The translations under genes were made by a program, and so were the position numbers. A stretch of 64,000 nucleotides of DNA, taken from a virus. Taxonomy: Duplodnaviria > Caudoviricetes. Below the pieces are notes generated by a model. That model made no database searches, was not told the DNA's origin, and saw only the letters and a list, made by a program, of their open reading frames with translations. Each line of letters begins with the position of its first letter. Positions within the stretch are counted from its first letter, which is position 1. Positions 4,983-52,990 of this stretch are shown one piece after another. The DNA lies in the IMG/VR virus record IMGVR_UViG_3300013212_000097, positions 1,888 through 65,887 of that record. The stretch is one strand, 5' to 3'.

Positions 4983-5007
4983 AGGGCTAGAACACTGTAT
5001 TTGAGAA
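4983..5007 (+). promoter_or_regulatory. Putative phage late promoter AGG-N18-AGAA
   Basis: Identical spacing at 4983, 11740, 50770, 52935; GGG variants at 35302 and 36019. Confidence 0.55.
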
Positions 5008-5043
5008 AAAAACAGATAGTGTATATTATTTACAGGGATAAAA

Positions 5044-7644
5044 ATGTTCAATTTCAAAAAATTCGCTAACGATTTAAACTTTGCAGAAAAAGTAGATATC
5101 AAATCTATTCCCGGTACTTTAGAGCAAAAAGTAGAATGGGTTAAAAATTGGTTTTTAAGAAATGGTGTTGAACTTAGTGTTCAAGATGCATATGCAATGC
5201 TTGGACATGTGCCACTTGGACCAGAAGCTCAACATTTAGAGAAATATAGAGCGAATATTAATCAACTTCGTGATTTGGCTGGAGATGCGCTGAAGCAAAT
5301 TGTTTTATCTCAAAGACCTGACCTACAACAAAGAGTTATGAACGGTGATAAAGATGCCAAAAAGGAACTTGATAGATTAATCTATGTCACAGTGTCCAGT
5401 AAACTTGGCTCAATTGTCGAGCACACCATACAACTTGCAAATCAAAAATTTATACCAGAATTGGTCAAACTTCATTCTTCTTCAACAAGAACACTTCAAG
5501 ATGTCGATGAATTGAGAAAATATGATTCTCCAGAAGAAATCGCAACTATACAAAACTTTATCAGTGAAGAGATCATGAGACTGAAAAATGAAACTAACAC
5601 TAAATTCTTAAGGATTTGGGAATATTTCAATAAGTCAAATCCTGATTTAACTCTTGATCATATGTTTTTTATTCTTCAAAATACAACAAATCAAATTCTC
5701 AAGAATGAAGATATTTCATTATCTCCCGAAGACAAAGAAAACATCAAAGCTCAAGTGGTAGATTTATCCAAATCAGTTCAAAATATGAATAACTCAGGAG
5801 CAGTATGGGCAAGAATATTGTCATTGCATCCTGATGCTCCAAATGTTGAAGAATGGAAACAGTTTATTCCAGATGAATTAAAGGCAACTTGGAATATTAT
5901 TGCAGTCTTACAAACATTCCATAGACAACTTGAATACGAAGCTGTGCCTGTTAGAGTTGTTAGCAATGAAACTGGCAAAACAGAATTGCTAGATACAAGT
6001 TATTTATATTTTTATCCTGGACTAAAACCTGATGGTACTAAGTTTGAATCAGATGCAGAAAAGAAGCAATTTGCATTAGATAGGCTTAGGGATTGTGTTG
6101 AAAATGGTTATGAAAATGAAAGAATATTTTCTGCACTAAGTATCACAATCAAAAAAGCTCCTAAAATTGATCAAACTGTTGTAGAAAATGCACCAGAAGA
6201 TGAAGAACCATCCGAAGATTTGGAAATTTCTGAAGATACCAAGTCAGCTGAGCCAAAAGATAAAGATTCATCACTAATCAGATATTACTACAGATTTATT
6301 TGTACTAAATCTACTAATACTGCAAGCTTAATGCAAGCAAATTCACAACTTGGTAGTTTCAGAAATGATTTAAGAGCTGCCGGATTAGGTCATGTGGCTG
6401 ATTTATTATCAAAGGCATATGAAAAACAACCAGATCTTAGATACAGTGATTTGGATCTCATGTTCTTATCAGGAGAAGAAGGGAATATGATTAACGAACT
6501 TAGAGAAAATTATAATCTAGATGCTATTCCTTTCCCTGTAAAGATTCCTTGCCCAGTTGACAATCCTACATCTGTAAGTAGATTTGAAATTGACTTTTTA
6601 TTACCATGCGATATTTTAGTTAGATTTAGAAAAAGATATCAAGAATTTATGGATGAAAATACTGGAGAAAAAACTAAAATTTTTCAAACTTTCCCAGTTG
6701 TTGAATCGCAAGTAATGTTTGTAGGTGAGTATTTTGGATACAGAAGAACCAAACCTTACTTTCCAAAATATACAGGAAGACCATGGGTAAAACCAAATGG
6801 AGATTTACCAGTCTATTCTTACAAAAAATCTGGAAAAACATACGATGTAAGACCTGGTGGATTTTGTAGATATTTGGAGTTTTACAAATTAAAAAGAGAA
6901 TGGAAAGTTTTTACCACTGAAATAATTGCAGACATTATGGGTACAAGGACTTTATCTTTAGATGACAGACATTTAGAGAAACCTACCCTATTAATGAGCG
7001 CATTGGATGAACAAGGTATAGTTTATCAATCTCCAAGATGTACTCCAGAAGTTGGATGTAAAGCTACAAAATTAATTGAAGAAACCCTGGGCAGAACTCC
7101 AGAAGTTGAAAAAATCATTGATGAGAGATATTTGAGAGAAAATTTTGATTCTCCTAAAAATAGATGTTTAAGACTAGTTGATTGTTGTATTGCAAACTTA
7201 AAATTGACAACTGCCTTAGCAAGAACTAGAGATGAGTTTATTCCTGTTGATGATCCAAATAATTTCTTAGGAAAAGGCTTTAACAGGCAAACAATGTATG
7301 ACCATCTTCAAGAAAAAAGACGCATTTTAGAAGAAATTAAAATGTTGGAAAAGATGCACCTTGATGATTTGGAAGATAGCGAAATATTACAAGATTTGCA
7401 ATCAGCTAGAGCTAATTTAAAAGGATTTTATTCTTCTCCTATTTATGATTTCAAAATGAAGTTTGAAGAGATATGTGAAAATCCTAATGGTGAAATATAC
7501 AAGAAATTGCAAAAATTTCAATCATTAAGAAATGAGATAGAATCTGAAACTCAAAAATATACTTTGTATGAATTAAGAGTAAAAATAGCTGAAATTGACA
7601 ACACATTCCTTGCTGAAAGAATAAAAGACGATGAGGTCATATAA
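5044..7644 (+). CDS. Large protein with FNFKKFA N-terminal tag and possible PD-(D/E)xK-like domain
   Basis: 866 aa; SGEE..MINEL, FEIDFLLP, GEYFG pattern. Confidence 0.55.
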   Translation: MFNFKKFANDLNFAEKVDIKSIPGTLEQKVEWVKNWFLRNGVELSVQDAYAMLGHVPLGPEAQHLEKYRANINQLRDLAGDALKQIVLSQRPDLQQRVMNGDKDAKKELDRLIYVTVSSKLGSIVEHTIQLANQKFIPELVKLHSSSTRTLQDVDELRKYDSPEEIATIQNFISEEIMRLKNETNTKFLRIWEYFNKSNPDLTLDHMFFILQNTTNQILKNEDISLSPEDKENIKAQVVDLSKSVQNMNNSGAVWARILSLHPDAPNVEEWKQFIPDELKATWNIIAVLQTFHRQLEYEAVPVRVVSNETGKTELLDTSYLYFYPGLKPDGTKFESDAEKKQFALDRLRDCVENGYENERIFSALSITIKKAPKIDQTVVENAPEDEEPSEDLEISEDTKSAEPKDKDSSLIRYYYRFICTKSTNTASLMQANSQLGSFRNDLRAAGLGHVADLLSKAYEKQPDLRYSDLDLMFLSGEEGNMINELRENYNLDAIPFPVKIPCPVDNPTSVSRFEIDFLLPCDILVRFRKRYQEFMDENTGEKTKIFQTFPVVESQVMFVGEYFGYRRTKPYFPKYTGRPWVKPNGDLPVYSYKKSGKTYDVRPGGFCRYLEFYKLKREWKVFTTEIIADIMGTRTLSLDDRHLEKPTLLMSALDEQGIVYQSPRCTPEVGCKATKLIEETLGRTPEVEKIIDERYLRENFDSPKNRCLRLVDCCIANLKLTTALARTRDEFIPVDDPNNFLGKGFNRQTMYDHLQEKRRILEEIKMLEKMHLDDLEDSEILQDLQSARANLKGFYSSPIYDFKMKFEEICENPNGEIYKKLQKFQSLRNEIESETQKYTLYELRVKIAEIDNTFLAERIKDDEVI

Positions 7645-8636
7645 TGTCTTTATTAACTTCAGATTACATAGCTAGTTGGTTTTTTCTGCAAAAAAAAGAC
7701 TTTAGTGGTTTAGCACAAATATTACAACCTTATTATGTTCTTGAAAGCTTGGATTATAGCAAAAATGTTAGTACAGAAGCAGTTGATTTAATTCAAGGTG
7801 ATGCTGGTGTTCATGTAATCAATACTTCTGGAACAACATTTAAAACAACTATCAGTTCTGAAGCGTTGATTATAAAAGACGTTGATACCACCACTGTTCA
7901 GTACAGAGATATTTTTGATATCTTGCTAGAAGATTATTATGCTCTTCTGAACTATTTTTTTATTCCATCTACAGATTTGAATAATAATGGTGGAAATTCT
8001 AATGATTTATTCAGTGGAAACAAAGTTAGAATAGAAAATCTCTTCAATAATGCAACTATCACTATTGGACAAAAGATTTCATGCAATATTGATTACAATT
8101 GTGTGTATTCTAATAAGTTTAATATTGCATATAATAATTATTCCGAAGGTTTACAGGGAGATTTTGATTTTATTGCTAGAACAGCAAGAAATTATGATTG
8201 TAGATTTTTCATAGACAATACTAATGATTATTATATAAAATCTGGCACTTTGACTATTAGCATGAGCCATAAACAAGTTTATATTGCAAATACTAAAAAT
8301 TCTGTTCCATTTTATTCTCCACAAGGATACAAAGTCACAGGCAGTATTACAGTATTGGTAAAAAACTTTGATTTTGAAAATATACCTACATATGGAAATA
8401 TTTCTTTATTAGTAGGAGATAGATATTTAGAATTAGGTCAAGCTAGTATAAAATCAGAGTACAGCAGAAAACTCAATGCATCTGAAAGTGCATCAACCAT
8501 GACAATTCAATTCACTGGATATGCAAGATTGGGTGCTGGAATCAACAATTCTACATGGCTTACTTATTTCCAAAGCAAATTGGATCAAGAAAAGTTTACC
8601 AAAGTATTGCAAAAAATTAATGGATATCTATCATAA
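7644..8636 (+). CDS. Putative tail tube/baseplate-like protein, paralog 1
   Basis: Beta-rich; shares LL..(D/E)Y...W, GD.G.H, R.A..YD, P.YS..GY...G.IT.L blocks with the next gene. Confidence 0.45.
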   Translation: MSLLTSDYIASWFFLQKKDFSGLAQILQPYYVLESLDYSKNVSTEAVDLIQGDAGVHVINTSGTTFKTTISSEALIIKDVDTTTVQYRDIFDILLEDYYALLNYFFIPSTDLNNNGGNSNDLFSGNKVRIENLFNNATITIGQKISCNIDYNCVYSNKFNIAYNNYSEGLQGDFDFIARTARNYDCRFFIDNTNDYYIKSGTLTISMSHKQVYIANTKNSVPFYSPQGYKVTGSITVLVKNFDFENIPTYGNISLLVGDRYLELGQASIKSEYSRKLNASESASTMTIQFTGYARLGAGINNSTWLTYFQSKLDQEKFTKVLQKINGYLS

Positions 8637-9511
8637 TGCCACTCTTATCTCCTGAATATTTCGGCACATGGTATGTTATTACTTTGGATGGCAAAAGAAG
8701 AATTTTGCAATCTTATAGTGAAACATTAAATCTTGAATCTAGCAATGAAAAATCTGCTCTTGTAGGAGATATTGGAAAGCATATTGCTGACATTGGTCCA
8801 TATCACTATGCATTGACTTTGACCTCACCAATATTAATTTTAGAGCCCTATGGTGTTTTTTACGATGCTTTTGATATTGTCTTAGAAAATCTTGACAAGA
8901 TACAGCAGCCTATTACAGCTTCAAATATTTCAACTTATGAATATGTAATGCAAAGTGCATCAATTAATATTGCAACAGATGGTTCCAATGTATCTACACA
9001 GCTTGAATCATGGCAAGATTTTGCTGATACGAAAGAATATCGTCCAGCAGATGATTTCTTTTACGGTAGATTGGCAAAATTTTATGATATTTATTTTTCA
9101 ATGTTTGGAAATGAATATTTAGTGCAAAGTGCCAATTTAAATGTAAGAGTAAATAATGATAAGCATTTTTACATTGCTGGAACGAATGATTTTCTTGGTA
9201 ATCAAGTTCCCAAGTATTCTATAAATGGGTATTCAATTTCTGGTGATATTACATTATTAATAAAGCCTGATCAATATGAAACTTTGAAACTTTATAATGC
9301 TCAAAGTCCAGGCATATTTAATGCATTAAAAGAATCTGTCAAACTAAAAGTTTTTTACAGACCCACTGGTGTAAACAGAGATAAAACAATTGATTTTGGA
9401 GACTTTGCTTTTATGCCGAGCATTGAGTTATCTATCAGTCCAAATCAAATTATCACTGCCAAGATTAATTTCTACACCTTGTTTAGAAGAACCAGTGTTA
9501 TCAATTACTAG
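8636..9511 (+). CDS. Putative tail tube/baseplate-like protein, paralog 2
   Basis: Paralog of 7644..8636, translationally coupled. Confidence 0.45.
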   Translation: MPLLSPEYFGTWYVITLDGKRRILQSYSETLNLESSNEKSALVGDIGKHIADIGPYHYALTLTSPILILEPYGVFYDAFDIVLENLDKIQQPITASNISTYEYVMQSASINIATDGSNVSTQLESWQDFADTKEYRPADDFFYGRLAKFYDIYFSMFGNEYLVQSANLNVRVNNDKHFYIAGTNDFLGNQVPKYSINGYSISGDITLLIKPDQYETLKLYNAQSPGIFNALKESVKLKVFYRPTGVNRDKTIDFGDFAFMPSIELSISPNQIITAKINFYTLFRRTSVINY

Positions 9512-9526
9512 TTGTATAACCCATAT

Positions 9527-10060
9527 ATGGAAGATATTCACCGTATTGATTTATCTGAACACGAAGATAAACTAAAAGCATTAGAAAATTTACAAGACGG
9601 TGAGTTGATACTCAAGTTTGCAATTCCTGGCAGACCTTCAACCAAAAAAACTTCACAAAGAGTAGTAAGACGAGGTGGTTTTACTAAAATTTTACCTTCT
9701 CTTTTGTATGAAAAATATGAAAAGCATTGTAAAACATTTTGTGAAGATGCATGGAAACATCATAATCTTCCACCTATTGATTGCGGTATCGGAATCAAAA
9801 TCAAAGTTTATTTAGATTCTTGGATTGTTGGTGATGAATGCGGTTATCAACAAGCGCATGGAGACATAATTCAGGCTCATGGAATCATAGAAAACGATAT
9901 GTGGATTCATTGGATTGATAAAAATGAAAACATGATTTTTTATGATAAAGAAAATCCAAGAATTGAAATTGAAATATGTAGACACAGACATGCCAAGGAA
10001 ACTTTTAGGGAAGATCAAAGAATAAAGGAAGCAAAGAAGCTTGCAAAAATAAAGAAATGA
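9527..10060 (+). CDS. RusA-like Holliday junction resolvase
   Basis: IPGRPSTKK N-motif, D.IQ..GIIEND, DKENPRIEIEI; ATG at 9527 preferred over TTG at 9512. Confidence 0.7.
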   Translation: MEDIHRIDLSEHEDKLKALENLQDGELILKFAIPGRPSTKKTSQRVVRRGGFTKILPSLLYEKYEKHCKTFCEDAWKHHNLPPIDCGIGIKIKVYLDSWIVGDECGYQQAHGDIIQAHGIIENDMWIHWIDKNENMIFYDKENPRIEIEICRHRHAKETFREDQRIKEAKKLAKIKK

Positions 10061-10557
10061 AATGGTATGTTTATATTGCTAGAGATGATGAAAATATTGT
10101 CGAAGGCATTTGCAATGATTTGATAGCTGAAGACAATTTGCTAAACTATGAAAATGATTGGGCTACAAATTATAAGATTGTATGGTTTCTAGAAACAAAA
10201 AATAAAATAGATGCACTTTCAAAGCTGAAGTCTATATCTATCCTGTCTCTAGAAGAAAAATTAGATTTAATATCTGAATCTAAGAAAATTATTATCATGT
10301 CTGAAAATCATGACATTGATAAAGAAAAATATCCCTTAGTGGTAAATTTAAAATGTACATTGGAAATTATTAATTTCTTCAATGAACTTCCAGAGCTTTG
10401 GAAACTTAATGATTTATATCTTGAAAATGTAGCCGAATATCTAGCTATAAGAAGAAGTCAAGTCATGAATGTAAAACTTTGGGACATCTCAATTGATTCA
10501 TCCAAATATGTTGGAATTATCACTAGAGAAAAATTTTACCCTATTATTAAATACTAA
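10057..10557 (+). CDS. Degenerate GIY-YIG-like protein
   Basis: WYVYI...GICNDL pattern; catalytic Arg not evident. Confidence 0.4.
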   Translation: MKWYVYIARDDENIVEGICNDLIAEDNLLNYENDWATNYKIVWFLETKNKIDALSKLKSISILSLEEKLDLISESKKIIIMSENHDIDKEKYPLVVNLKCTLEIINFFNELPELWKLNDLYLENVAEYLAIRRSQVMNVKLWDISIDSSKYVGIITREKFYPIIKY

Positions 10558-10577
10558 AAGCGGACCGAAGTCCGCTT
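10558..10577. terminator. Hairpin terminator between convergent genes
   Basis: AAGCGGAC-CGAA-GTCCGCTT. Confidence 0.75.
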
Positions 10578-10601
10578 CTAATATTTTGAGTTTTATGACA
10601 A

Positions 10602-10928
10602 CTAAGCTGGAACAATAAAGTGTGGCTCAGTGTCAGAGATGGAAAATTCACCCTTAACACCAAGAGGCTCAATCAGATCCTTCATTCGCTCTTGAAGTGC
10701 AACAGTGTTCTCATTCAAGGAATCATTGATTAGATTCAAGCGCTCTTGTGCCTGTTGAAGCTGTGCTGCATACTGCTGCGCAACATTGACAAACTCAAGA
10801 ACATCAGCCTTCTGAGCCTTCAACTCAAGAATTGACTGACGCATAGCTACTAGCTCAAGATAATCCTCATGAGAAATTGTTGGGTTGTCTCCACCCTCAA
10901 CCTCTGATACTACGTTCTCTTCACTCAT
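10602..10928 (-). CDS. Coiled-coil hypothetical protein
   Basis: 108 aa, GAGG RBS. Confidence 0.7.
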   Translation of the reverse strand: MSEENVVSEVEGGDNPTISHEDYLELVAMRQSILELKAQKADVLEFVNVAQQYAAQLQQAQERLNLINDSLNENTVALQERMKDLIEPLGVKGEFSISDTEPHFIVPA

Positions 10929-11060
10929 TTTTTGGTTAACCTCTAACGATCATTTGATCTTTTTTATGATACCCACAAAATATCATATTGTCAATTATTG
11001 ACTATGTTGTTCATCCGTGGTATATTTCAAAAGTATTTATACAACAAATAAGGATATCAA

Positions 11061-11747
11061 ATGAAAGAAGTTACAATTGCACCATCTGATTTTGCATTTT
11101 TATATAGCGAATCACCTTGGGCTTTTCATCAGAAATATATCTCAGGTATTAGGAGACCACCACTAATCCTTCCTAAGATTTTTAATGTAATTGATGGTGC
11201 AATTAAAGAATCCTATGCTGATGAAGATTTCTCCAAAATATCTAAAAATCTTCCTCCTGCTACCCTTCGTACATCTTCAAAATGGGTAAAATCTAAACCT
11301 ATTATCAATCCAGATTACGATTTATCTGTTCAAATTATTGGCAAGATCGATGGTTACCTTGAATATTCTGATGGCAATGTATCTATTATTGATTTCAAAA
11401 CAAGTGAGATCAATGAAGAATTTGCACAAAAATATAACTTGCAACTTCATTCATATTGTTATTCTGTGATGAATCCTGATAATAGCAATTGTTTACATCT
11501 TGAAAATGTTACAGATCCAGGTTTGTTGATTTTTGAGCCTAAAAAGTTTATGATTGACCATGACTGTAAAGCTGGGCTTAAGGGCAACTTGAAATGGATG
11601 TCTTTTAAACTTGATATTGATTTTTTCACAAATTTTATCAAGAATGAAGTGATCCCATTATTATCTGGTCCAGAACCTAAACCGCCAGTAGAAGATCCTT
11701 ATTGGAAATATTTACAACAATTTGGATTTGAATACGAACAGGAATAA
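11061..11747 (+). CDS. PD-(D/E)xK (RecB/Cas4-like) nuclease
   Basis: GKIDG...IIDFKTS...QLHSY. Confidence 0.85.
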   Translation: MKEVTIAPSDFAFLYSESPWAFHQKYISGIRRPPLILPKIFNVIDGAIKESYADEDFSKISKNLPPATLRTSSKWVKSKPIINPDYDLSVQIIGKIDGYLEYSDGNVSIIDFKTSEINEEFAQKYNLQLHSYCYSVMNPDNSNCLHLENVTDPGLLIFEPKKFMIDHDCKAGLKGNLKWMSFKLDIDFFTNFIKNEVIPLLSGPEPKPPVEDPYWKYLQQFGFEYEQE

Positions 11748-11785
11748 ACAATCTAGTATAAGAAGAAGACATTGAATATCTCAAA

Positions 11786-12874: not shown

Positions 12875-12933
12875 GAATATATTATGTCTGCTCAAGTTAA
12901 CAAATTACATGACAGATTTCTTAGTGATGATTA

Positions 12934-13509: not shown

Positions 13510-13528
13510 TTGTTTGTATAATGTTTGC

Positions 13529-15027: not shown

Positions 15028-15053
15028 AAAAACCCCCTTTTCAGGGGGTTTTT
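15028..15053. terminator. Bidirectional intrinsic terminator
   Basis: AAAAACCCCT-loop-AGGGGGTTTTT between convergent genes. Confidence 0.8.
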
Positions 15054-15055
15054 CT

Positions 15056-17280: not shown

Positions 17281-17739
17281 TTAATCTATTTTGTAAGTTT
17301 CATCAAACTCTTGTCTTGCAATTCTATATACTTCAGCAAAATTGGGACATGGGGATACAATCATATCTCCAGTTTTCAAGACCATATTTCTGCCCCAGGA
17401 GGCTACAAATTCCATATCACTACCTTGATATACAGTTGCCTTTACTTTGCCCTTAGGTTTCAAAATATGTCCGTTTTCAGTTTGATATAAAAAATCATAT
17501 CTTTGAATACACATTTCTTCTGTTACAATATATTCTTCTTGAGATTGTGTATTGAGATTTTTAAGCACAAAATCACCTTCTTTGGCATAGTTTGTTGTTT
17601 CTAAACCATCTGAGGTCCAAGTTTCTATAAACTCACCAGATGTGGCTTTTCTAGCATAAACTAAAGATGTCTTAGAATATATCTTCCCTTGTGATTCAAT
17701 ACAGGGAAAGAACATTTCATAGGCTTCTTTTTGGTTCAT
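17281..17739 (-). CDS. PGDYG-like protein with internal duplication
   Basis: Two repeats of K...V.A...GD.(V/I)...E.Y.(V/I).......Y. Confidence 0.6.
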   Translation of the reverse strand: MNQKEAYEMFFPCIESQGKIYSKTSLVYARKATSGEFIETWTSDGLETTNYAKEGDFVLKNLNTQSQEEYIVTEEMCIQRYDFLYQTENGHILKPKGKVKATVYQGSDMEFVASWGRNMVLKTGDMIVSPCPNFAEVYRIARQEFDETYKID

Positions 17740-17787
17740 ACAGTATATATTCTAATAAGAAGATTCTATTTCTTATGAGGTTACATT

Positions 17788-18952: not shown

Positions 18953-18956
18953 AGAA

Positions 18957-27667: not shown

Positions 27668-27732
27668 ACCTCCCCAGGTTATTTTTTTTGAATGTGAGCT
27701 ATTGTTTTATTCTTGATTTAATGGGTTCCTAC

Positions 27733-27963
27733 TTAAAGATGAGATTCAAAGTCATCATCAATAACATCCCAAGCGTATCCCGAGTTATCTAAAATATGAA
27801 GATTATTCTTAATATATTCATTAAAGTCAGGGTAATATAAATTTTCTAAAGAATCATAAATACTATTCTCTTTTAAGTAAATATAATAATCTTTTGTCCA
27901 TGATTTCATCTGGATTTTATAGCCAGCTTTTAAAAATACTAATATTCTTGAAAATAAAAACAT
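27733..27963 (-). CDS. Divergent DUF2829/Tad2-like protein
   Basis: FSRIL..LKAGYKIQMKSW...WDVID. Confidence 0.5.
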   Translation of the reverse strand: MFLFSRILVFLKAGYKIQMKSWTKDYYIYLKENSIYDSLENLYYPDFNEYIKNNLHILDNSGYAWDVIDDDFESHL

Positions 27964-35275: not shown

Positions 35276-35336
35276 TTATAATATCCCCTAATGAAAATTA
35301 GGGGATATTTTGTTTATGTTCTAGAATATATTCTTT

Positions 35337-35999: not shown

Positions 36000-36053
36000 T
36001 ACAATACCCCCTCTTGCAGGGGGTTTTTTCTTTTAAAATAGAATAATTGACTT

Positions 36054-36554: not shown

Positions 36555-36555
36555 G

Positions 36556-37382: not shown

Positions 37383-37383
37383 A

Positions 37384-39204: not shown

Positions 39205-39210
39205 AATAAA

Positions 39211-43855: not shown

Positions 43856-43859
43856 TAAA

Positions 43860-46202
43860 TTAATATTCGTTATCATCAAAATCCATAAACATCATGTATT
43901 TTTCTTCAATATAATCTTGTACTGGTTCGCCTAATAATCTTCTGCTAAATTCTTCTTTAATGTCTCTAAATTGCGCCATAGTAACTGTTGAATTAATTCC
44001 AAGATCATCAGCTTCCATATTGTGAAATTTATCAGCAGGTCTCATACTTAAGAGTTGCATTGCTTTTTGTCTTGTTATTGTGGCATTAGGATCAACTGGC
44101 AATGCTGGCGCTGGCTGAATCTTTCTTTGAACAGGATAAAGTCCAGGGAATCTCTTTTTCAAAACTGCCTGTAAGTTTTCGTTAGCAATTGCTTTTAGAA
44201 CTTGTGTCTTGTTATCTCTGGCATAAGCATATGCATCAGGATTGCTAGCTATAGCATTTTTTTGATCTTCAGATGCATCTTGAGCAAATTCAATTGTGAA
44301 TTTGTCAGATTTGATAAGCATATGAACGAATGTTTCTTCATTCATCAAACTAGCAGGTATTTCCAGTATTGAGTTTACATTCTCAATAATAATCTCAAAT
44401 ACTCCTTCAAGACCTAATTCTCCAGAAGCATCTATAACTTCTCTAGGTAAATCATTAATGACATATGATTCTGATAAAAGACCTTGAGCATACAATTGAA
44501 AAGCTATGTTGAAATCATAACTATCATAAGGATCATCTGACATTGCAGCAACAACTGTACCAAACTGATTGATTCTTTCATTTTCTTCTATGTCAGATCC
44601 ATAGTTATAAACATTGAATTCATCATCAGTATTGTATTTACCACCTAATACTTTTACTGATATAAGATTGTTCTTGATACATTCAAAAACAAAATCAGGT
44701 GTCAACACTTCTTTCGTGAGATATAAAGGCTTTTCTATTTTGTATTCATTTGACAATATAGATTCTTGCACTTTTTGTATTGCTTCCTGAATATCAATTT
44801 TGCCTATGATAGCCTTTTCAAAGAAATCTAAATCCATTTCTTGTTTTGCAAAAGCATCAATAATACTATCAGTGTCAAATAAAGATTGGAATTTTTCTCT
44901 TGCAATTTCACTGAAAGATGGCATAAGATTTTGAAGTTCATCTATACTAAATAATTCAAAAAATCTATAATCAAAAGTAAAGTCTGAAGTGAATATTTTC
45001 TCTGAAATAAACTTTTTGGCATATTCTTTCATCTCTGGATTAATATCAAAATTAGAAATGCCAAGTCTTGGAAAATTGCCAACAAAACTTTGAATATATC
45101 TTCCCAGCACTGTGTAAACTTTGTATTTTACAATCTCATCAAAATCTTCTTGGTTAAAACCTGAACTTACAGAGCCTAATAGTTTATTTCTAATTCTATT
45201 TTTATTTAATGCAGGGTCTTTTTTAATAACTGCTACTATTTCAGCTGGTAAATATGTATTTGATGAAATAAGATTTAATAAATCACCAAATACATTTTTT
45301 CTTTCGTACATGAACATAAATTGTGCAAATGTAAGATCATGCATTCTAAGAACGTATGCTTCTTTGTCACTGTACGAGAGATCCATAAACCAAGATAAAC
45401 TTTTGTTTTGCTTTGAAAATCTTCTTTTGTTATCATCTTCTTCTGGTGACAATGGTCTAGGAGCAAAATCTTCTTTTTTAATTTCGCCACCAGAAACATC
45501 ACTCAAATATTGGAAATAACCATCAATACTTTTTCCATAATTTTTACCATTGACAACTAAATTAGCCATCAATTTATCACCAGTCTCATTTATTTCATCA
45601 GTGATTTGAATGCCTGCTGGTCTTACGTCAATTGCAACTTTTCTAAATGGATAACTTCTATTAGGATCTTCAACTATGTAAAAATTACTAGATTCATCGT
45701 ATCTGTATTTTAAGAACATTCCAGTGGAACGATCACCAATACACCATGATGTGCCTACACAAGTTTTTTCAGATTCATCATAAGTTTTTGGATTGAATAT
45801 TTTGATTTTTTCATTAGTTATGACAGGCTCCAAATCTTGAGTGGCTGCCATATCTTTTTTAGGTTTTAATTGAGAATCTAAATAATCTACATGTTCAACA
45901 ATAGCCTCAAAATCATCAAAATCAACTTCATCAAAAGCAGATTTTATTTCAAGAGAATTTTTTGAAACTTTTGTGGTAATAACATTTTTTTGTTTTAAAT
46001 TAAATAATTTTTCAGATAAATGTGAAAGAGCTAAAGTTGTTTCAATAGAATCTCTGTTATCTGCAACAATATAACAATATGCAAGTTCTAATTGAATGTT
46101 GGTTGGCGCATTTTCAATTACTTCTGGAACAGGCAAAGGAGAAAGAAATTTTTGAATTTGAGCAGAGGCAGATACGATTATTTTTGAAAACTTATACCAC
46201 AT
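43860..46202 (-). CDS. MWY-tagged large hypothetical protein
   Basis: MWYKFS start; GTSWCIG block. Confidence 0.7.
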   Translation of the reverse strand: MWYKFSKIIVSASAQIQKFLSPLPVPEVIENAPTNIQLELAYCYIVADNRDSIETTLALSHLSEKLFNLKQKNVITTKVSKNSLEIKSAFDEVDFDDFEAIVEHVDYLDSQLKPKKDMAATQDLEPVITNEKIKIFNPKTYDESEKTCVGTSWCIGDRSTGMFLKYRYDESSNFYIVEDPNRSYPFRKVAIDVRPAGIQITDEINETGDKLMANLVVNGKNYGKSIDGYFQYLSDVSGGEIKKEDFAPRPLSPEEDDNKRRFSKQNKSLSWFMDLSYSDKEAYVLRMHDLTFAQFMFMYERKNVFGDLLNLISSNTYLPAEIVAVIKKDPALNKNRIRNKLLGSVSSGFNQEDFDEIVKYKVYTVLGRYIQSFVGNFPRLGISNFDINPEMKEYAKKFISEKIFTSDFTFDYRFFELFSIDELQNLMPSFSEIAREKFQSLFDTDSIIDAFAKQEMDLDFFEKAIIGKIDIQEAIQKVQESILSNEYKIEKPLYLTKEVLTPDFVFECIKNNLISVKVLGGKYNTDDEFNVYNYGSDIEENERINQFGTVVAAMSDDPYDSYDFNIAFQLYAQGLLSESYVINDLPREVIDASGELGLEGVFEIIIENVNSILEIPASLMNEETFVHMLIKSDKFTIEFAQDASEDQKNAIASNPDAYAYARDNKTQVLKAIANENLQAVLKKRFPGLYPVQRKIQPAPALPVDPNATITRQKAMQLLSMRPADKFHNMEADDLGINSTVTMAQFRDIKEEFSRRLLGEPVQDYIEEKYMMFMDFDDNEY

Positions 46203-46210
46203 GATATGTT

Positions 46211-46594
46211 TTATTCTACAGGTTCATAGGAAATTCTTACCAAAGGATCTCCTGATATATACAAATATCTTACATGAACATTTTCAATATATCTTGATGT
46301 ATCATCTGGAAATATTTCAGCTCTCACTAAAAGATCAATTAATGGCTTGGCTAAATTATCAATATCATTTTTTTGTCTCCATAAATGATTAGCCATCACA
46401 AGCAATTCAACATTTACTGGAAACTGTTTAGCAGGCAACATATCCTGGATTACAACTGGGAGATTTTTGTCAATCCATGCATTATATTTTCTAGATTTCA
46501 CCATTTTTCCACGAGCAATTGGAACATACATTTGATTTGCAGAAAAAGGTTTATTTACAATGCACGATGTCTTTTGCATCATGAATTTATACAA
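46211..46594 (-). CDS. rusA: RusA family resolvase
   Basis: PFSANQMY, DIDNLAK..IDLL, PDD. Confidence 0.88.
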   Translation of the reverse strand: MYKFMMQKTSCIVNKPFSANQMYVPIARGKMVKSRKYNAWIDKNLPVVIQDMLPAKQFPVNVELLVMANHLWRQKNDIDNLAKPLIDLLVRAEIFPDDTSRYIENVHVRYLYISGDPLVRISYEPVE

Positions 46595-46641
46595 GTCAAA
46601 TGCAGAATTTATTTTTCTTGAAAAAAAAGATATAATAGATT

Positions 46642-47010
46642 ATGCAAGACAAAAGTTATTGGTTATTTTATGTTTTTGTAGAATGTATGATTTACAACAA
46701 TAGATCATTTTGCGAAGATGATTTCAAAGCATTATTAGATTCTCAAAGATTAAGTCAAATAAAAATGAACTTCAATGATGAAGTTAAAGACTTTGTAGAT
46801 GAATGTAAAATATTAGATGATATAGATTATGAACTTAACAAAAACAATTACTGGATGCCAAAAAATAACATTATAAATCACGACTATAATTTGAAAACTA
46901 TTATTCAAGATTTGCGACTGGATTTAGAGTTAGAACATGCAAATAATGATTTTTATGATTCTTCTTGCGATATAGTGCAAAAAATAAACAACTATTTACA
47001 TTTTCTATAA
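46642..47010 (+). CDS. Hypothetical protein
   Basis: TATAAT just upstream of ATG. Confidence 0.6.
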   Translation: MQDKSYWLFYVFVECMIYNNRSFCEDDFKALLDSQRLSQIKMNFNDEVKDFVDECKILDDIDYELNKNNYWMPKNNIINHDYNLKTIIQDLRLDLELEHANNDFYDSSCDIVQKINNYLHFL

Positions 47011-47057
47011 ACCCTTGAATAAAGGGTTTTTCTTTTTAACATGCAAAAAATATATGT

Positions 47058-47804
47058 ATGTGGTACAGAACAGTTATAGCTCAAATATCTGATGTTGATC
47101 AATTTAATTTAGATGCTGAGAAATATAATAAAATGCTTGAGGAAAAAGCAAAAAAAACTCAACCTAAAAAAACAACAAAACCTGTAATAAAACCTGTCAC
47201 TAAACCAGAATTAACAACTGAACCTATAAGCCCAAAACCCAAACCTGTAGCGCCAAAACCAATTGCGCCAACCTCTAATCCTTCAAAACCAAACAACTTC
47301 AAAAATATAATAAATAACTTAGTAGAACTTGAAGGCGGAAAATCCAATTTATCTTATGATAAAGGCGGTAAAACAAATTTAGGTATCACACAATATACCT
47401 ATAACAATTGGAATAAAAAACACAATAAACCACTTAAAGATGTTTATAAGATAACAAGACAAGAAGCAGATCAAATTTACAAAGAAGAATATTGGAACAT
47501 TATAAAAGGTGACCAACTACCACCAAATGTTGCGCACATTATGCTTTCACAAGCTCTTCTTGATGGTCCACAAGATTCAATAAGACTTGTACAAAAATTA
47601 TTAGGTTTAAAAGTGGATGGAATTATGGGTTCTGACACTTTAAACAAAATAAAAAGACTCACTGTCAACGGAGACATAAAACTAGCCAAAGCAATAGCAA
47701 ATAAACAAATTTATAGACTAAAAACTGATGAAGATGCTGATAAATTTGGTAAAGGCTGGAATAATAGAGTTCAAAAAGTAATGAAAAAATTTAAAGGAAA
47801 ATAA
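47058..47804 (+). CDS. MWY-tagged GH108 lysozyme
   Basis: EGG.SN...DKGG.TN.GIT, IYK..YW, VDGIMG..T, F..GW.NRV; Pro/Lys linker. Confidence 0.88.
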   Translation: MWYRTVIAQISDVDQFNLDAEKYNKMLEEKAKKTQPKKTTKPVIKPVTKPELTTEPISPKPKPVAPKPIAPTSNPSKPNNFKNIINNLVELEGGKSNLSYDKGGKTNLGITQYTYNNWNKKHNKPLKDVYKITRQEADQIYKEEYWNIIKGDQLPPNVAHIMLSQALLDGPQDSIRLVQKLLGLKVDGIMGSDTLNKIKRLTVNGDIKLAKAIANKQIYRLKTDEDADKFGKGWNNRVQKVMKKFKGK

Positions 47805-47978
47805 ATGGATAAAAGAAAATCTTTATTATCGCCTGAGCAAGAAAAACTCTTGTCTAAATTTCAAAATAATCTTGGTGATAAATCTGCATCGCTAGAAAAT
47901 AATCAGAATACAAATAAAAAAGCAAATTCTAATGGAATGAAACCTAACATTAGAAGAAGCGGCAGTAGAGGGAAATAA
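47805..47978 (+). CDS. Small basic protein (57 aa, not in the ORF track)
   Basis: MDKRKSLLSPEQEKLL...IRRSGSRGK. Confidence 0.55.
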   Translation: MDKRKSLLSPEQEKLLSKFQNNLGDKSASLENNQNTNKKANSNGMKPNIRRSGSRGK

Positions 47979-47986
47979 TTTTTAAA

Positions 47987-48958
47987 ATGCAAATCTATGG
48001 AAAATTTTCACAACTAATTATAGAAGCATATAGAAATCCAAATTTTAGATTTGCTGAAGAACCTTCGCCTGAACCAGAGCCAGAAATAGTAGCACCTACA
48101 GCGTTAAATTATCCTGGTTTGTTTGCAAGAATGCAAAGTTTAGAAGATGATAAAAAACTTAGCATCTATATGAATTTAAAAAGAGCACAGACAAAATTAA
48201 AACTAAAATATAATATTGATTCACTATTACCAATAAAATTAGATTCAACTAAATCTCCAGCTGAATATAGTGACAATTCAAATTCCAACACTGATGAAAA
48301 AATACAAACATATTTTTATAGAGTGTTTGCATATTTAGTTGATTATTTTGAAAATGAAGCTTCATCTGCTCCTACAAGTGAATCTACATCGTCATCAGAA
48401 TCAGAAGAGTCAAATCCATTTGCAGTGACTGATCCATCAACTGATTCAAGTTCTAGTGAAACATCAGCTACAACCGAAACTACATCAAGTGGCGAAACAA
48501 CATCTACAACTAGTTCAGATACATCGGAAGAACTTGCTGAGAATATCCCACCAATTACAATTAAAGTAAGTGGTAAAGAATATTCGCCAGCCAAATCTAT
48601 CACACTTGTTAAAAGAGTAAATTTAATTGGCAGTAATCGAAATAGTGCTATAGTCTTAGATGATGATTCCGTCACTGATTATAATTGCTTCATCCAATTT
48701 GAAAATGAAAAATGGAAATTATCGAAATTTAATGATTCATATTTAACTATAAACGGAAATATTGTTGATGAATTCTTTGAGTTGAACGTTGGCGATTATT
48801 TTGTTCCAGGCACTAAGGAGACATATATATTATCGGTGGAGAGGATAGGAACTGATAGTGGTGGATTCTCTGGTGAAAGTGCACCAAGTAGTGGTGGATT
48901 CTTTGGTGATGGTGGTGGAAGCGGTGGTGGCTTTGGTGGTAGAAGAAGATCATTATAA
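47987..48958 (+). CDS. FHA-like domain protein with Ser/Thr linker and Gly tail
   Basis: LIGS...IVLDD.SV...C.I...W...INGN; phosphothreonine-binding residues degenerate. Confidence 0.55.
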   Translation: MQIYGKFSQLIIEAYRNPNFRFAEEPSPEPEPEIVAPTALNYPGLFARMQSLEDDKKLSIYMNLKRAQTKLKLKYNIDSLLPIKLDSTKSPAEYSDNSNSNTDEKIQTYFYRVFAYLVDYFENEASSAPTSESTSSSESEESNPFAVTDPSTDSSSSETSATTETTSSGETTSTTSSDTSEELAENIPPITIKVSGKEYSPAKSITLVKRVNLIGSNRNSAIVLDDDSVTDYNCFIQFENEKWKLSKFNDSYLTINGNIVDEFFELNVGDYFVPGTKETYILSVERIGTDSGGFSGESAPSSGGFFGDGGGSGGGFGGRRRSL

Positions 48959-48985
48959 AGGTATAATAATATTGAGGTAAAAAAA

Positions 48986-49333
48986 ATGAAAATCTTAATC
49001 CCTTTTGTCGTATTACTTAACGCAACAACAGTTCATTCAGTAATTAAGTTTGAACAATTCAAATTTTCTGGAGCTAAATATTTTACACTTACTGGCACAA
49101 ACAGAGTGGATCATGTTTACGACAGATTAAGAGATGTTCTTTCATCCGATGCTAAATCTGATCATGTCTCAACTAAGAAAGTCAATGGAGCCTGGTGCGT
49201 GACAGTGAAAGATAATGTATTTGTAACTGTTACTTCTACAGACTCAATGTTCCATAAAACAGCACCAAAGAAACTTGCTGAAACTTGGGCTTTCAATCTT
49301 AAGTCTAATCTTGATTCTGTAAAACCAAGATAA
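48986..49333 (+). CDS. Putative exported small protein
   Basis: Signal-like N-terminus; GAGG RBS. Confidence 0.6.
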   Translation: MKILIPFVVLLNATTVHSVIKFEQFKFSGAKYFTLTGTNRVDHVYDRLRDVLSSDAKSDHVSTKKVNGAWCVTVKDNVFVTVTSTDSMFHKTAPKKLAETWAFNLKSNLDSVKPR

Positions 49334-49400
49334 TCTCGGACTGGTTAACAAAAAAAAGATGCGCTGTTTTGGCGCATCTTTTTTTATGTCTAACCATTCC

Positions 49401-50369
49401 TTATCTTACAGGATTGCCAAACTGATCAAGAATACTTTGCCCAGTTGGGTAATAGCTTTTACCCCATAAGAAATTGTTTGGATTGATTGTTGTATCAAAC
49501 TTGAAGAACTTTGCATGACCATCTGCAAATACATAATTAGAACCACCAGTGTGTCTGCCTGGTTCCATAAAACGAGTGTGATATCCAGTATCCGCTGATA
49601 CAGATCTGCAACCACCTGTGCCGTTTGAACTTGTTGAATCTGATCCACCACCCCAACCAAGAGCGCCTTCAGCTTCAAACTTTGTGATTGCAAAGATTGG
49701 ACCTGTTGCATCTGCAAAGTTCTGTCCAGCCCACTGACCGCCACTTGCTGTACGCATCATGGCGTTAACTGGTCTGTGACTCTTATTGCGCTTTTCAGTA
49801 TTAAGTTGACCAGTTGAACCAAGAAGGATGCAGTTGAGGTTACTGGTCATTTCTGCAATAGCAATAACATCTGCAGGAGCATCAACAGAAGCGATTGCAA
49901 CAATGTTTGGTGCATCTTGTGGACCACGCTTACGCGGAAGAACTGCAGAGTTTGGAATGTAAGAAAGACGAGGAACTTGTGCTTCACAACCAAGTGTCAC
50001 AACATCTAACCAGTTTGCACATGGTGGGTTGTCAGGACGAACACCCTTGTTAGGATCTGATGGACAAACCCAAACTTGCTCATTCTTGATATAAGGATGA
50101 ATCATAGCTGTGAAGTGGACATAACCACCAGAAGAACCACCATTAGTAGTAGCAGTATTGTTCTTATAGAAATAAGCAGTTGGATAAGTCTCATCATAAT
50201 CTTGGGTATACATCATGAGACCTAAACCAATTTGCTTTTCATTTGACAAACAACTAGCAGAACGAGCCTTGTCACGAGCCTGTGCAAAAACAGGGAAGAG
50301 GATAGCTGCCAAAATCGCAATGATAGCGATGACAACAAGTAATTCAATTAAAGTAAAAGCTTTTTTCAT
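49401..50369 (-). CDS. Prepilin-type N-methylation / DUF1559 / H-X9-DG protein
   Basis: [29 protein letters not shown]...CLSN.KQ; [14 protein letters not shown]. Confidence 0.93.
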
Positions 50370-50460
50370 TTTTTTATTTCCTTTTATTTAGGACCAAAAT
50401 ATTATTCCCAATTTAAAAGAGAGAAATATTAAGAACTATTTAATATAAGGATTTAAAAAA

Positions 50461-50706
50461 CTAAGGCATTTGATTGCTAGTCCAATCAGGACCAGAAAGA
50501 ATAGCTAAAATCTCTTCGTAAGTGTACAAATCAGTTTTTGTTGTAAGAGCATCAACACAAGGTGGAACAGTGGGACCATCCCATTTGACAAATGTTTTTA
50601 AACCATCAACTGATTTTCTAACAGTGTCAACACTAGTCTCCAAAACTTGAGTAAAATCAATCAAGTTTAATTCACTAACATCAAAAATAACAAAAGTTCT
50701 ATCCAT
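50461..50706 (-). CDS. Hypothetical phage protein
   Basis: VLETS..TVRKSVDG.KTFVKW. Confidence 0.7.
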   Translation of the reverse strand: MDRTFVIFDVSELNLIDFTQVLETSVDTVRKSVDGLKTFVKWDGPTVPPCVDALTTKTDLYTYEEILAILSGPDWTSNQMP

Positions 50707-50833
50707 AAAAACCTTACCTCATATGTAGAATAATATAGATTATATACAGCATACTTAAAAACAAATAAAAGGTAATAATCCTAATACAAAAGAAATTCTA
50801 TATATTATAAGTGGAATTCGATAAAAAATAAAT

Positions 50834-51403
50834 ATGAATATAAACATTTTAGTGAAAATAGCGCAAACCTTAGATCAACAAAAAAAATATAAATTAGTTG
50901 ACAAAATTACTACAGCCATGATGCAAAAAGAAAGTATGATTTTCTTACTCAAAGTAATAGAAGATGCCTTTAACTTTAATGCATTAGTAAAAGCACTAAA
51001 TAATTTTTATGATCAAAGAGATTTAAATTACCTTATAAGTGAAAATGGATTAAGAACATATAAAAAATTGCCCACTGATTATCAAACATCTGAAGTATTG
51101 TGGAATCACACCCTTGAAGATTTAGAAAATTTATACAAACCAATAAAATCTCTAAATGAAAAAGTGACAATATCTGGCACTTATCTTAACAATGCACCAA
51201 TAAAAATGGATGGCGAATCTCTCAACTACTATGAAATAAAAGAAAAACTTTTAGCCCTATGCACCGAAATTGAAAATTTCCACTCATCGTTATTCGAAGC
51301 ACATCAGAAAATGAAAAAACCACTAAGCGATTTAGAAGAACAATTGACCCGAAATACAATCGAAGAGATGGAAAATTCTAACGATCCAATACCAGAGGAA
51401 TAA
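50834..51403 (+). CDS. Helical-tag hypothetical protein
   Basis: LVKIAQTLDQQKKYKLVDKIT; AGG-N18-AGAA at 50770. Confidence 0.65.
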   Translation: MNINILVKIAQTLDQQKKYKLVDKITTAMMQKESMIFLLKVIEDAFNFNALVKALNNFYDQRDLNYLISENGLRTYKKLPTDYQTSEVLWNHTLEDLENLYKPIKSLNEKVTISGTYLNNAPIKMDGESLNYYEIKEKLLALCTEIENFHSSLFEAHQKMKKPLSDLEEQLTRNTIEEMENSNDPIPEE

Positions 51404-51404
51404 T

Positions 51405-51749
51405 ATGAATAAATTTATCAAAGTAGCATTACTAGAAAATAAAGAACGTCTCGACGCTCAAGAAACACAATTAGAAGAAGTGAGAACAAACAAAACATAC
51501 ACTTCAATTAATGATGCACTTGAACAACAACACAAAAATATCAATAAGTCAATAACAGAATCACTAAACAAAAAATTCAATGATCCTGATAATGAATTCT
51601 TTGAGAACTTGTTAGATCAAGCTGGTTTATATTCAAGACAATATAACAAAAACAATAAAACCTTGGGATTTATGGTGGATTCAACCAACAAAGGTGTGGA
51701 CGAAAGACATATCCAAGAAAAACTCAAGGAAAGACACACAAATAAGTAA
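51405..51749 (+). CDS. Hypothetical protein
   Basis: MNKFIKVA start, 114 aa. Confidence 0.6.
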   Translation: MNKFIKVALLENKERLDAQETQLEEVRTNKTYTSINDALEQQHKNINKSITESLNKKFNDPDNEFFENLLDQAGLYSRQYNKNNKTLGFMVDSTNKGVDERHIQEKLKERHTNK

Positions 51750-51986
51750 TTATAAATTAGAATACCACATATCTAATATCTTACAAATCAAAATAAAAGA
51801 CAATAAAATATTCGATAAAAAAACATAAGCTAATTTGTAAGACTTTGTCTTTTCATTAATATACTTCCAACAATAATAACCACTTACCCACAAACAAAAG
51901 TTATATAAAAACCAAGATTCAAAATTGTTCGCTGTATATGCAAAATAGGCATAAATAATAAACTCTATACCGAAAATAGTAAACAT
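51750..51986 (-). CDS. Small membrane protein
   Basis: Hydrophobic 78 aa. Confidence 0.5.
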   Translation of the reverse strand: MFTIFGIEFIIYAYFAYTANNFESWFLYNFCLWVSGYYCWKYINEKTKSYKLAYVFLSNILLSFILICKILDMWYSNL

Positions 51987-52015
51987 AATATTTTTATAAA
52001 AGATGCAGGCTTTTT

Positions 52016-52933
52016 ATGGATAACAGACAAATAATATCATCTCTCAATGAACTCGCTAATGAACTTGATCAATGCGGTCAATACAAATTTAGTGAAGAGA
52101 TTGACAATTTAATAAGAATAGCTATATTACATGGTCATGGACCTAAATTAAGATATAACCATCCAGCGGTAGGTGACCTCAAAAGAAAAGAGCTAGAACC
52201 ACTACCGCCACAAAATTTAATAGAAAAAGTATTTCAAGAATTCGCTGGATATGGAAAACCATTACCAAAATCATTTTATGATTTTTTAAATCCATTAGAA
52301 TGGAATATTGATGATTTTCTTGATGATGTCCTACAATATTATAAAGAAGATAATACTATAAGTATGGATTTTATTAAACTTATTACATCTTCTTCCGAAT
52401 TTGTAAAAAAATTAGACTTAAATCTGAAAAATAGAAACAAAATACCTGTGTTTGAGCCTGTTTATACTTTTCAGGAAAAACCAGAAGTTTTCAAAAAAAT
52501 TCTACAAGAGGGTGAAAACGAACTTATAAAATCATTGGAAAAAGAATTCAAAAAATTAAAAGAATTAATTGTTTATAATCCAAACACTAGAATAAATAAA
52601 GTGGTACCTGCTCTGCTAGAAATTAGAGAATTATTACCACCTAAATTCTTAGCATATGTAGAAGCTGTAAATGAATGGTTAGATTATCAAAATAATGCTG
52701 AAAATGAAATGTTTGAAAAACAAGACATGCTTCATGATAACTTTAGATCAGAAGCCCGCGCTAGAGAAGAATTAGAGAATCGTCTAAATCCAAAAGAAGA
52801 AGAAGAAAAATGGTCAGTGCTTTCAAAATACACAATCAATAAACTTTACAAAATAGCCAACTCATTAGATGAAGCTAATCTTTATAAACAAGCTAGCTCA
52901 GTTACTAATCTTATGAAAAGAATAGCAAAATAA
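52016..52933 (+). CDS. Protein with the helical tag at both termini
   Basis: RQIISSLNELANELD...RIA and KLYKIANSLDEANLYKQASSVTNLMKRIAK. Confidence 0.7.
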   Translation: MDNRQIISSLNELANELDQCGQYKFSEEIDNLIRIAILHGHGPKLRYNHPAVGDLKRKELEPLPPQNLIEKVFQEFAGYGKPLPKSFYDFLNPLEWNIDDFLDDVLQYYKEDNTISMDFIKLITSSSEFVKKLDLNLKNRNKIPVFEPVYTFQEKPEVFKKILQEGENELIKSLEKEFKKLKELIVYNPNTRINKVVPALLEIRELLPPKFLAYVEAVNEWLDYQNNAENEMFEKQDMLHDNFRSEARAREELENRLNPKEEEEKWSVLSKYTINKLYKIANSLDEANLYKQASSVTNLMKRIAK

Positions 52934-52990
52934 AAGGAAATGATAATTCCTAAACAGAATTAATCAATCAAACCCTATATAGGAAACATT

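Follow-up and report, generated by a model that had tools for sequence, protein, structure and literature searches.

A spacing-specific two-box motif before virion genes of an uncultivated phage lineage, a candidate late promoter for a SigH-like sigma factor

RESULTS

A two-box motif in a fragment of a large phage

We analysed a 64,000-nt stretch of phage DNA (hereafter the window; bases 1888-65887 of the linear 65,887-bp virus record G000), in which the two-box motif AGG-N18-AGAA lies upstream of several genes. A preliminary description, made from the letters of the window, had put this motif forward as a non-sigma70 late promoter that is read by a phage sigma factor and precedes genes carrying the tags FNFKK, KIANELD or MWY. 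By adding sequence from related contigs we found that the motif is a real, spacing-specific signal situated before virion genes, and that the lineage encodes a SigH-like sigma factor which probably reads it. The window has a G/C content of ~31% and contains five tRNA genes (ARAGORN; the only Rfam matches in the window were four tRNAs), genes for a nuclease, a methyltransferase and HNH proteins, and many open reading frames (ORFs) without a family. A cluster of ORFs whose products begin with MWY(K/R) includes an M23 peptidase, an endolysin-like protein and two PcfJ-like proteins. Profile searches of the window found no genes for capsid, portal, terminase, sigma factor or RNA polymerase. The CheckV completeness estimate for G000 is 18%, which makes it a fragment of a phage of ~350 kb.

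Protein-guided scans of IMG/VR yielded four related contigs, G001 to G004. G001 (52 kb) is syntenic with window positions 26.9-63.6 kb at 67-95% DNA identity and extends 16 kb past the window end; G002 (87 kb) covers the leftmost 27 kb of G000, with an identity of 95% that falls to ~70%, and reaches 57 kb further left. G003 and G004 represent the same phage as G002 (100% identity in the overlaps) and add 7.7 kb and 60.4 kb, so that they supply extra sequence with no divergence gained. Three sets that the preliminary description had not seen, ~141 kb without overlap, served for validation: 64,982 nt ('ext'), 60,430 nt ('ext2') and the extension of G001 (16,218 nt). Together with the window, the four sets total 205,630 nt, of which 9,524 nt (4.6%) are noncoding. 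The 'ext' set carries a head module (portal, a 1394-aa protein with a head-maturation-protease domain, large terminase, major head protein) and a replication module (clamp loader, sliding clamp, ribonucleotide reductase, RecJ, UvsX, DNA polymerase, DnaB-type helicase). The 'ext2' set (G004 ~59,400-119,800) packs 33 called genes into 60 kb with 373 noncoding bases; the encoded proteins are of great length, the largest having at least 1319 aa, and are probably structural.

Motif sites in the window

All coordinates given in the preliminary description proved correct, namely exact copies at 4983, 11740, 50770 and 52935, GGG variants at 35302 and 36019, AAG variants on the minus strand at 46214-46238 and 17750-17774, and an AGTA variant at 17721. 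The four exact copies lie on the plus strand in upstream intergenic DNA. At 4983..5007, AGAA ends 36 nt before the ATG of an 866-aa gene (5044-7644), which is followed by a gene (7644-8636) with a weak match to Phage_tube_2 (E 0.008, below the cut-off). The copy at 11740..11764 overlaps the stop codon of gene 11061-11747 and ends 21 nt before the first ATG of gene 11786-12874 and 33 nt before a second ATG, which follows GGAG. Both of these copies are identical in G002. The copy at 50770..50794, in a divergent intergenic region, ends 39 nt before the ATG of a 189-aa gene (50834-51403), and that at 52935..52959 ends 31 nt before the ATG of a 148-aa KIANELD gene (52991-53437). The latter is the nearest of all sites to the published SigH consensus, with A after AGG and T after AGAA. 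Seven further exact matches, absent from the preliminary description (9310, 14205, 27829, 35711 and 54284 on the plus strand, 55878 and 59189 on the minus strand), all fall entirely within coding sequence.

We also found an AAG variant that had not been described before, at 27710..27734 on the minus strand; it ends 42 nt before the GTG of an 892-aa tail-like gene (24989-27667) whose product matches phrog_7440 'major tail protein' (E 3e-12). The four remaining GGG and AAG variants stand closer to their genes, and the earlier statement that AGAA lies 10-11 nt before the ATG in four cases holds, the distances being 10, 10, 10 and 11 nt before 35337, 36054, 17739 and 46202. In the GGG variant at 35302..35326 (plus strand), 9 nt lie between TAGAAT and the ATG of the M23 peptidase gene (35337-35999), which is MWY-tagged. 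The upstream box of this variant overlaps an intrinsic terminator that follows tRNA-Arg (35280..35309, plus strand), the stem of which is kept in G001 with indels in the loop. The second GGG variant (36019..36043, plus strand) precedes the MWY gene 36054-36554; its upstream box likewise overlaps an intrinsic terminator, here after the M23 peptidase gene (36006..36024, plus strand), and an AGG lies one base further upstream, giving a spacing of 19. The AAG variant at 46214..46238 (minus strand), 11 nt before the ATG of a 780-aa MWY gene (43860-46202), falls within the 3' end of a RusA-like gene (46211-46594), and that at 17750..17774 (minus strand) lies 10 nt before the ATG of an untagged 152-aa gene (17281-17739).

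The AGG-N18-AGTA variant at 17721..17745 (plus strand), before the gene at 17788, has only 6 noncoding bases, and no support was found for its belonging to the motif family. The surrounding segment (17740-17800), a short divergent intergenic region of 48 nt plus flank, contains three minus-strand TAGAAT copies and an A/T-rich hairpin; a sigma-A-like pair in it, TTCACA-18-TAGAAT, uses the middle copy.

Spacing and placement of the motif

The evidence for a genuine signal comes from spacing and placement. When intergenic, gene-directed copies of AGG-N(k)-AGAA were counted in the four sets, k=18 gave 8 copies (4, 3, 1 and 0 per set), while the 22 other spacings between k=8 and k=30 averaged 0.68 and never exceeded 3. 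In the three validation sets alone k=18 gave 4 copies (other spacings: mean 0.32, maximum 1). Our own Poisson arithmetic puts these excesses at ~6e-7 for the four sets and ~3e-4 for the validation sets. The total number of matches on both strands is unexceptional, k=18 giving 30 where the spacings range from 11 to 50, and what is special is where they lie: 10 of the 30 exact matches fall in the 4.6% of DNA that is noncoding, and 8 of these 10 point to a start codon within 110 nt. Only k=18 shows an excess in this range, and the motif is a real two-box signal with a specific spacing. Chance as the source of the k=18 placement is excluded, given the independent sequence from the relatives.

Counts in upstream windows of 80 nt point the same way. 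The 112 such regions of the window hold 4 exact copies compared to 0.77 in shuffled sequences (4 was reached by 8 of 1000 shuffles), and 61 upstream windows in 'ext' hold 3 compared to 0.61 (3 was reached by 20 of 1000 shuffles), a fourth exact site in 'ext' lying 61 nt from its start codon. Five exact matches occur in 'ext2'; one fills the 64-nt gap before the gene for the 1319-aa protein, and another ends 32 nt before a called start. The distribution is uneven: the window from 54 to 64 kb and the 16-kb extension of G001 are rich in intergenic DNA yet contain no gene-directed intergenic copy at all. A scan of viral contigs for the extended form of two head-gene sites returned 79 stretches; only G002, G003 and G004, that is one phage, had two each, and the remaining stretches look like single chance matches, with no diverged instance gained.

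Conservation between relatives

For eight intergenic sites of the window the orthologous 25-mer could be taken from G001 or G002. None of the 56 box positions differs, and of the 144 spacer positions 124 agree and 20 differ (Fisher one-sided p=0.00094); the spacing of 18 nt is unchanged in all eight. The signal comes from sites in which the spacer has diverged in G001 around kept boxes, namely 27734 (8 of 18 spacer positions changed, length unchanged), 35302 (7 of 18), 36019 (3 changes) and 50770 (2 changes), together with 52935, where the motif is identical and only the two flanks differ. The other three sites are identical throughout and carry no information.

A SigH-like sigma factor in the lineage

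The sigma factor that the preliminary description had called for was found in the lineage, encoded by G002, G003 and G004; it was not found in the window, in G000 or in G001. Searches of G000 and G001 with the RNA polymerase families PF00623, PF00562 and PF00940 and with sigma regions also gave no match, in fragments that cover <20% of the estimated genome and with a PF00940 control that was itself without signal. The sigma protein has 223 aa. Sigma70_r2 (PF04542) scores 38.5 bits in each of the three contigs, above its cut-off; in a search for regions 2 and 4, PF04542 gave 36.7 bits and PF08281 (r4_2) 26.6 bits, both above cut-off. The five top NCBIfam models all belong to the SigH series (PRK08295/TIGR02859), three of them being named SigH, and they cover residues 10-213, nearly the full length. 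The best scores were obtained with NF006148 (122.6 bits, 1.4e-35; cut-off 208) and TIGR02859 (122.1 bits; cut-off 294.8), and the next family, sigma70-ECF, reached 59 bits. A tblastn search with the protein against 50,697 phage records gave 11 matches, all at no more than 34% identity and none from SPO1. With sigma-70 regions 2 and 4 present in a SigH-like protein, and with the motif in the SigH register, the earlier term 'non-sigma70' is wrong at the family level.

The sigma gene sits in the replication module between the clamp-loader and sliding-clamp genes. In G002 two sigma-A-type promoters, each a terminator followed by an extended -10 box that would give a leaderless transcript, lie upstream of the sigma operon on the same strand. 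This arrangement fits a cascade.

Two site layouts and a separate sigma-A-type class

The sites seem to fall into two layouts. In the leadered class 31-42 nt separate the end of AGAA from the start codon (4983, 50770, 52935, 27734, two sites in 'ext' and one in 'ext2'). Counting exact sites alone, the distance is 31-39 nt at six of eight, the others being 21 nt (11740) and 61 nt (the major-head-protein operon). Most leaders contain a Shine-Dalgarno sequence as judged by eye, which is weak at best at 50834. Leadered sites precede head, tail-like and large structural genes. The short class (35302, 36019, 46238, 17774 and one site in 'ext2') carries TAGAAT (in one case TAGAAA); AGAA stops 9-11 nt short of the ATG, and a Shine-Dalgarno sequence is lacking. 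Its members stand before three heads of the MWY cluster and two other genes. Transcripts of this class would start at the ATG or a few bases from it and would be leaderless or nearly so. Over all sets 14 genes have AGAA 8-11 nt before the start; purine-purine-G lies exactly 18 nt upstream in 6 of them, compared to 0-3 at other gaps, and four of these six are sites already present in the preliminary description. At four sites of the window the downstream box is TAGAAT, a 5/6 match to the sigma-A -10 hexamer. When hexamers were scanned by distance, TAGAAT at 9-10 nt did not stand out (4 occurrences; null maximum averaging 4.4).

A different, sigma-A-type class is common in the window. The top motif found de novo there is an extended -10 box, situated mostly before small ORFs at 28-34 and 54-64 kb and often directly after an intrinsic terminator. 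Its hexamer is most frequent 5-7 nt ahead of the start codon, where the window has 19 matches compared to a background of 0-5 per distance; this suggests that leaderless mRNAs are widespread. Examples are the starts at 20451(-), 24912(-), 30066(-), 30217(+) and 33773(+), and further ones those at 46642(+), 57794(+), 61723(-), 61965(-) and 63336(+). The boxes of AGG-N18-AGAA sites do not follow the housekeeping sigma-A pattern (TTGACA-17-TATAAT or extended -10); exceptions are a pair at 4983, discussed below, and the TAGAAT of the short class. Between 54422 and 59703 we also noted a family of terminator-like hairpins, at least 6 copies, with the common stem core CCCTTGA...TCAAGGG and -35-like TTGAC within the stems. 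Short ORFs occur there on both strands, and the G/C content at 56-60 kb is 0.375.

Genes behind the motif

In the new sequence the motif stands before structural genes. One site heads an operon of a 559-aa gene, a 225-aa gene and the major head protein gene (phrog_2522, 1.3e-68). Others precede the gene for the 1394-aa protein with the head-maturation-protease domain, a 305-aa gene in the portal cluster and the gene for the 1319-aa protein, which has a weak 'virion structural protein' match. The motif is present before head-morphogenesis operons in the relatives and before a tail-like gene in the window; its absence upstream of structural genes, which the preliminary description had named as a refuting outcome, was not observed. 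By gene placement it lies before virion rather than early genes, and its timing would be late.

The connection with N-terminal tags and 'virion cargo' turned out to be loose, as the validation sites precede untagged structural genes. The earlier statement that all genes but one behind the motif carry a tag was also too strong for the window: all three tags are missing from the genes at 11786, 17739 and 17788, and an exact KIANELD is missing from that at 50834. FNFKK begins a single ORF, and KIANELD occurs in two (52991 and 53434). The shared trait of the motif genes is virion or late function, not the tag. Small genes arranged in tandem from 50834 to 54422 form a family whose products are alike at the N-terminus (two of them have MNKRQII.SLNKIANELD); G001 has extra copies.

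MWY(K/R) followed by a hydrophobic residue forms the N-terminus of ten ORFs at 35.3-47.8 kb (35337-47804), starting at 35337, 36054, 36556, 37055, 37384, 39211, 41424, 42224 and 47058 on the plus strand and at 46202 on the minus strand; only three of the ten have the motif. Both Tyr codons are used in the tags, so that the constraint looks protein-level, and MWY may serve as a tag by which virion-delivered proteins are targeted or processed. A Shine-Dalgarno core was present in one of nine MWY ORFs scored. G002 has an MWY ORF at 14145-14546 on the minus strand, beside the portal gene, and its 1394-aa protein (7527-11711, minus strand), in which the protease domain covers residues ~80-245, begins with MYRIAK, which is like the MWY tag minus Trp. 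The MWY ORF at 37055 is out of frame with a 92-aa ORF at 37104-37382. G001 has one intact ORF of 112 aa here, and in G000 the break at 37055-37382 resembles a frameshift or a sequencing error.

The DNA from 37384 to 43855 had no match in the phage nucleotide database, and a look-up of RNA data for window positions 44000-53990 returned no entry. For the 866-aa protein the protein atlas gave only leads below 0.9, and a PDB sequence search with a 330-aa protein was empty. A metagenome scan with the M23 peptidase returned one near-identical fragment and two unrelated peptidases. The gene at 49401-50369 (minus strand) encodes a 322-aa protein with an N-terminus like that of type IV pilins (phrog_3433 'pilin', E 3e-7, residues 3-40).

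DISCUSSION

We consider AGG-N18-AGAA to be, with somewhat better than even probability, the core of a late promoter class that is read by the SigH-like sigma factor of the phage. AGG would be part of the -35 box and (A)GAA part of the -10 box, in the register of SigH. In Bacillus subtilis the SigH motif is reported as AGGAATT-N14-CGAAT (PMC6849360), and for Sporomusa SigH a -35 box AGGA and a -10 box GAAT with a spacer of 17-18 nt are described, said to resemble those of B. subtilis and Clostridioides difficile (PMC12456013). In both published forms, as in AGG-N18-AGAA, GAA lies 22 nt after the A of AGG. The bases after AGGN are A/T-rich in our sites, as is the background. In contrast to the SigH system of Bacillota, the sigma factor is here phage-borne, and the genes served are virion genes rather than transition-state genes. 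What has been gained for the idea of a late promoter read by a phage sigma is a spacing-specific, conserved signal before virion genes and a suitable sigma factor in the lineage; that transcription starts at the motif sites, that it is late, and that the phage factor rather than host SigH reads them is what we infer.

The putative cascade would have two steps. First, the host sigma-A holoenzyme would read extended -10 promoters, often leaderless, of early genes and of the replication/sigma module; second, the SigH-like phage factor would redirect the host core RNA polymerase to AGG-N18-AGAA before the virion operons. This resembles the gp28/gp34 cascade of SPO1, in which a phage factor of the sigma-70 family moves the host RNA polymerase from sigma-A early promoters to other boxes. 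The phylogeny of Schwartz et al. (10.1101/2021.11.12.468384) places SPO1 gp28 in a group that also holds sigH, and the passages on SPO1 transcription in PMC13401047 give no promoter consensus. Jumbo phages without an RNA polymerase of their own are described as commonly encoding sigma factors that recruit the host enzyme (PMC7824862). The present lineage is similar in that it encodes a sigma factor and that RNA polymerase families were not detected in G000 and G001. There is also a likeness to T4-type late transcription in the position of the sigma gene between those for clamp loader and sliding clamp. Late promoters of T4 have a single -10-type box and require the sliding clamp. Here, by contrast, there are two boxes at a fixed distance and a sigma factor with both region 2 and region 4. 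In the portions of the literature consulted we met no SigH-like phage sigma paired with a late promoter in the SigH register; the supplementary tables of Schwartz et al. could contain phage factors of the SigH-like type.

A considerable number of observations weigh against our interpretation. Several concern the sigma factor and its kinship to SigH. The scores stay below the SigH equivalog cut-offs (208-295 bits), so that the protein is SigH-like and not an orthologue, and its gene was met only in relatives, which have 95% identity at the shared end; it is missing from this contig, the distance from it to the left end of G000 being ~24 kb. The fourth base, directly after AGG and A in SigH promoters, is T in five of eight exact sites, A in two and G in one. 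The SigH -10 box (R/C)GAAT is not matched, T following AGAA in three of nine leadered sites and in four of five sites of the short class. A search for AGG-N19-GAAT, fixed a priori, showed no enrichment (3 observed, 1.65 expected over the four sets). Others concern the extent and independence of the sites. Only ~12 bits, those of the seven defining bases, are fixed, and an alignment of 14 sites shows no clear conservation in any other column. No motif was found at the head of the G002 portal operon (17940) or before the MWY gene at 47058, itself preceded by a terminator. Sites 50770 and 52935 precede possible paralogues and are alike beyond the boxes, and two head sites of G002 share an identical 11-nt stretch around AGG, so that neither pair may consist of independent cases. 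Furthermore, gene starts were taken from a crude ORF caller of our own.

The other adverse observations bear on the explanation that there is no single element, and that the sites are a mixture of terminator stems, TAGAAT as a sigma-A -10 box, -35-like TTGAGA, duplicated upstream regions of paralogues and chance matches in purine-rich intergenic DNA. Over the whole window the exact motif is not enriched, with 11 matches compared to 8.94 +/- 3.0 in dinucleotide shuffles (28 of 100 shuffles reach 11). Among 262,144 motifs of the same form (3-mer, gap of 10-25 nt, 4-mer), 866 are at least equally enriched in the window, so that the upstream excess in the window alone would not survive the choice of motif. 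Gapped motif discovery, which the preliminary description had recommended, did not recover the motif: expectation-maximization of the zero-or-one-occurrence-per-sequence (ZOOPS) type on 48 head-of-unit upstream regions returned the sigma-A-type extended -10 box. Non-AGG variants are weakly spacing-specific (5 at k=18, 4 at k=19, mean 1.14 at the others). Both GGG boxes (35302 and 36019) are 3' arms of intrinsic-terminator hairpins, the four TAGAAT sites occur in a window where sigma-A-like -10 boxes 5-7 nt before the ATG are common, and a sigma-A-like pair, TTGAGA-17-TATTAT (5001-5029, 10/12 match), overlaps the motif at 4983; the resemblance of 50770 and 52935 beyond the boxes would fit duplication as well. 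Against a mixture speak the recurrence of the k=18 excess in the validation sequence, the boxes that are kept next to variable spacers (p=0.0009), the tight distance to the start codon and the sites before head genes. We regard it as unlikely for the motif as a whole and as credible for the short class alone. A first reading of the data, in which the sites were put down to chance and mixed features with TAGAAT as a sigma-A -10 box, was dropped in favour of the exact-motif class after validation in the relatives.

It is also possible, if a little less likely still, that the host's own SigH reads the sites, tying late or virion expression to the transition state of the host, and that the phage factor serves other promoters. 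The register is the same as that of bacterial SigH promoters, site 52935 comes near the bacterial consensus, and nothing physically links the phage factor to the sites. On the other hand, a SigH-like sigma gene beside replication genes has an obvious use for a phage, and most sites depart from the bacterial boxes (T for A after AGG, no T after AGAA), which fits a diverged specificity. Very improbable, finally, is that the boxes, which are separated by about two helical turns, serve as an operator for a phage DNA-binding regulator, or that they are a signal acting in the RNA of the 5' leader: short conserved boxes of low information content at a fixed distance would suit a dimeric or tandem binder, but the boxes are unlike each other and form neither repeat nor palindrome, eight of the ten intergenic matches are oriented towards a gene, a normal leader including a Shine-Dalgarno sequence would fit between motif and start codon, a known sigma class shares the register, and Rfam recognised nothing but tRNAs.

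Going beyond a phage-read late promoter, one may imagine that a huge phage of a Bacillota host captured SigH, shifted its -10 preference from GAAT to AGAA, and drives its whole virion regulon from leadered and leaderless promoters, including the ten MWY proteins with cell-wall hydrolases that are probably delivered with the virion. We put this forward tentatively and think it doubtful in its full extent. If it were true, the shared register would make cross-talk between phage and host possible: the phage factor might activate stationary-phase or sporulation-entry genes of the host, and host SigH might fire late phage genes in starving cells.

Sigma cascades of phages, like the sigma genes of jumbo phages, are already well known as a general principle. 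Hardly any promoters of uncultivated huge phages are known, and intergenic AGG-N18-AGAA provides a rule that marks virion operons. Such a rule sorts genes without a known function into a late/structural class, and it gives a sigma-promoter pair that can be tested. The use of a relative of the transition-state sigma factor by a phage would bear on how phages interact with starving or sporulating Bacillota.

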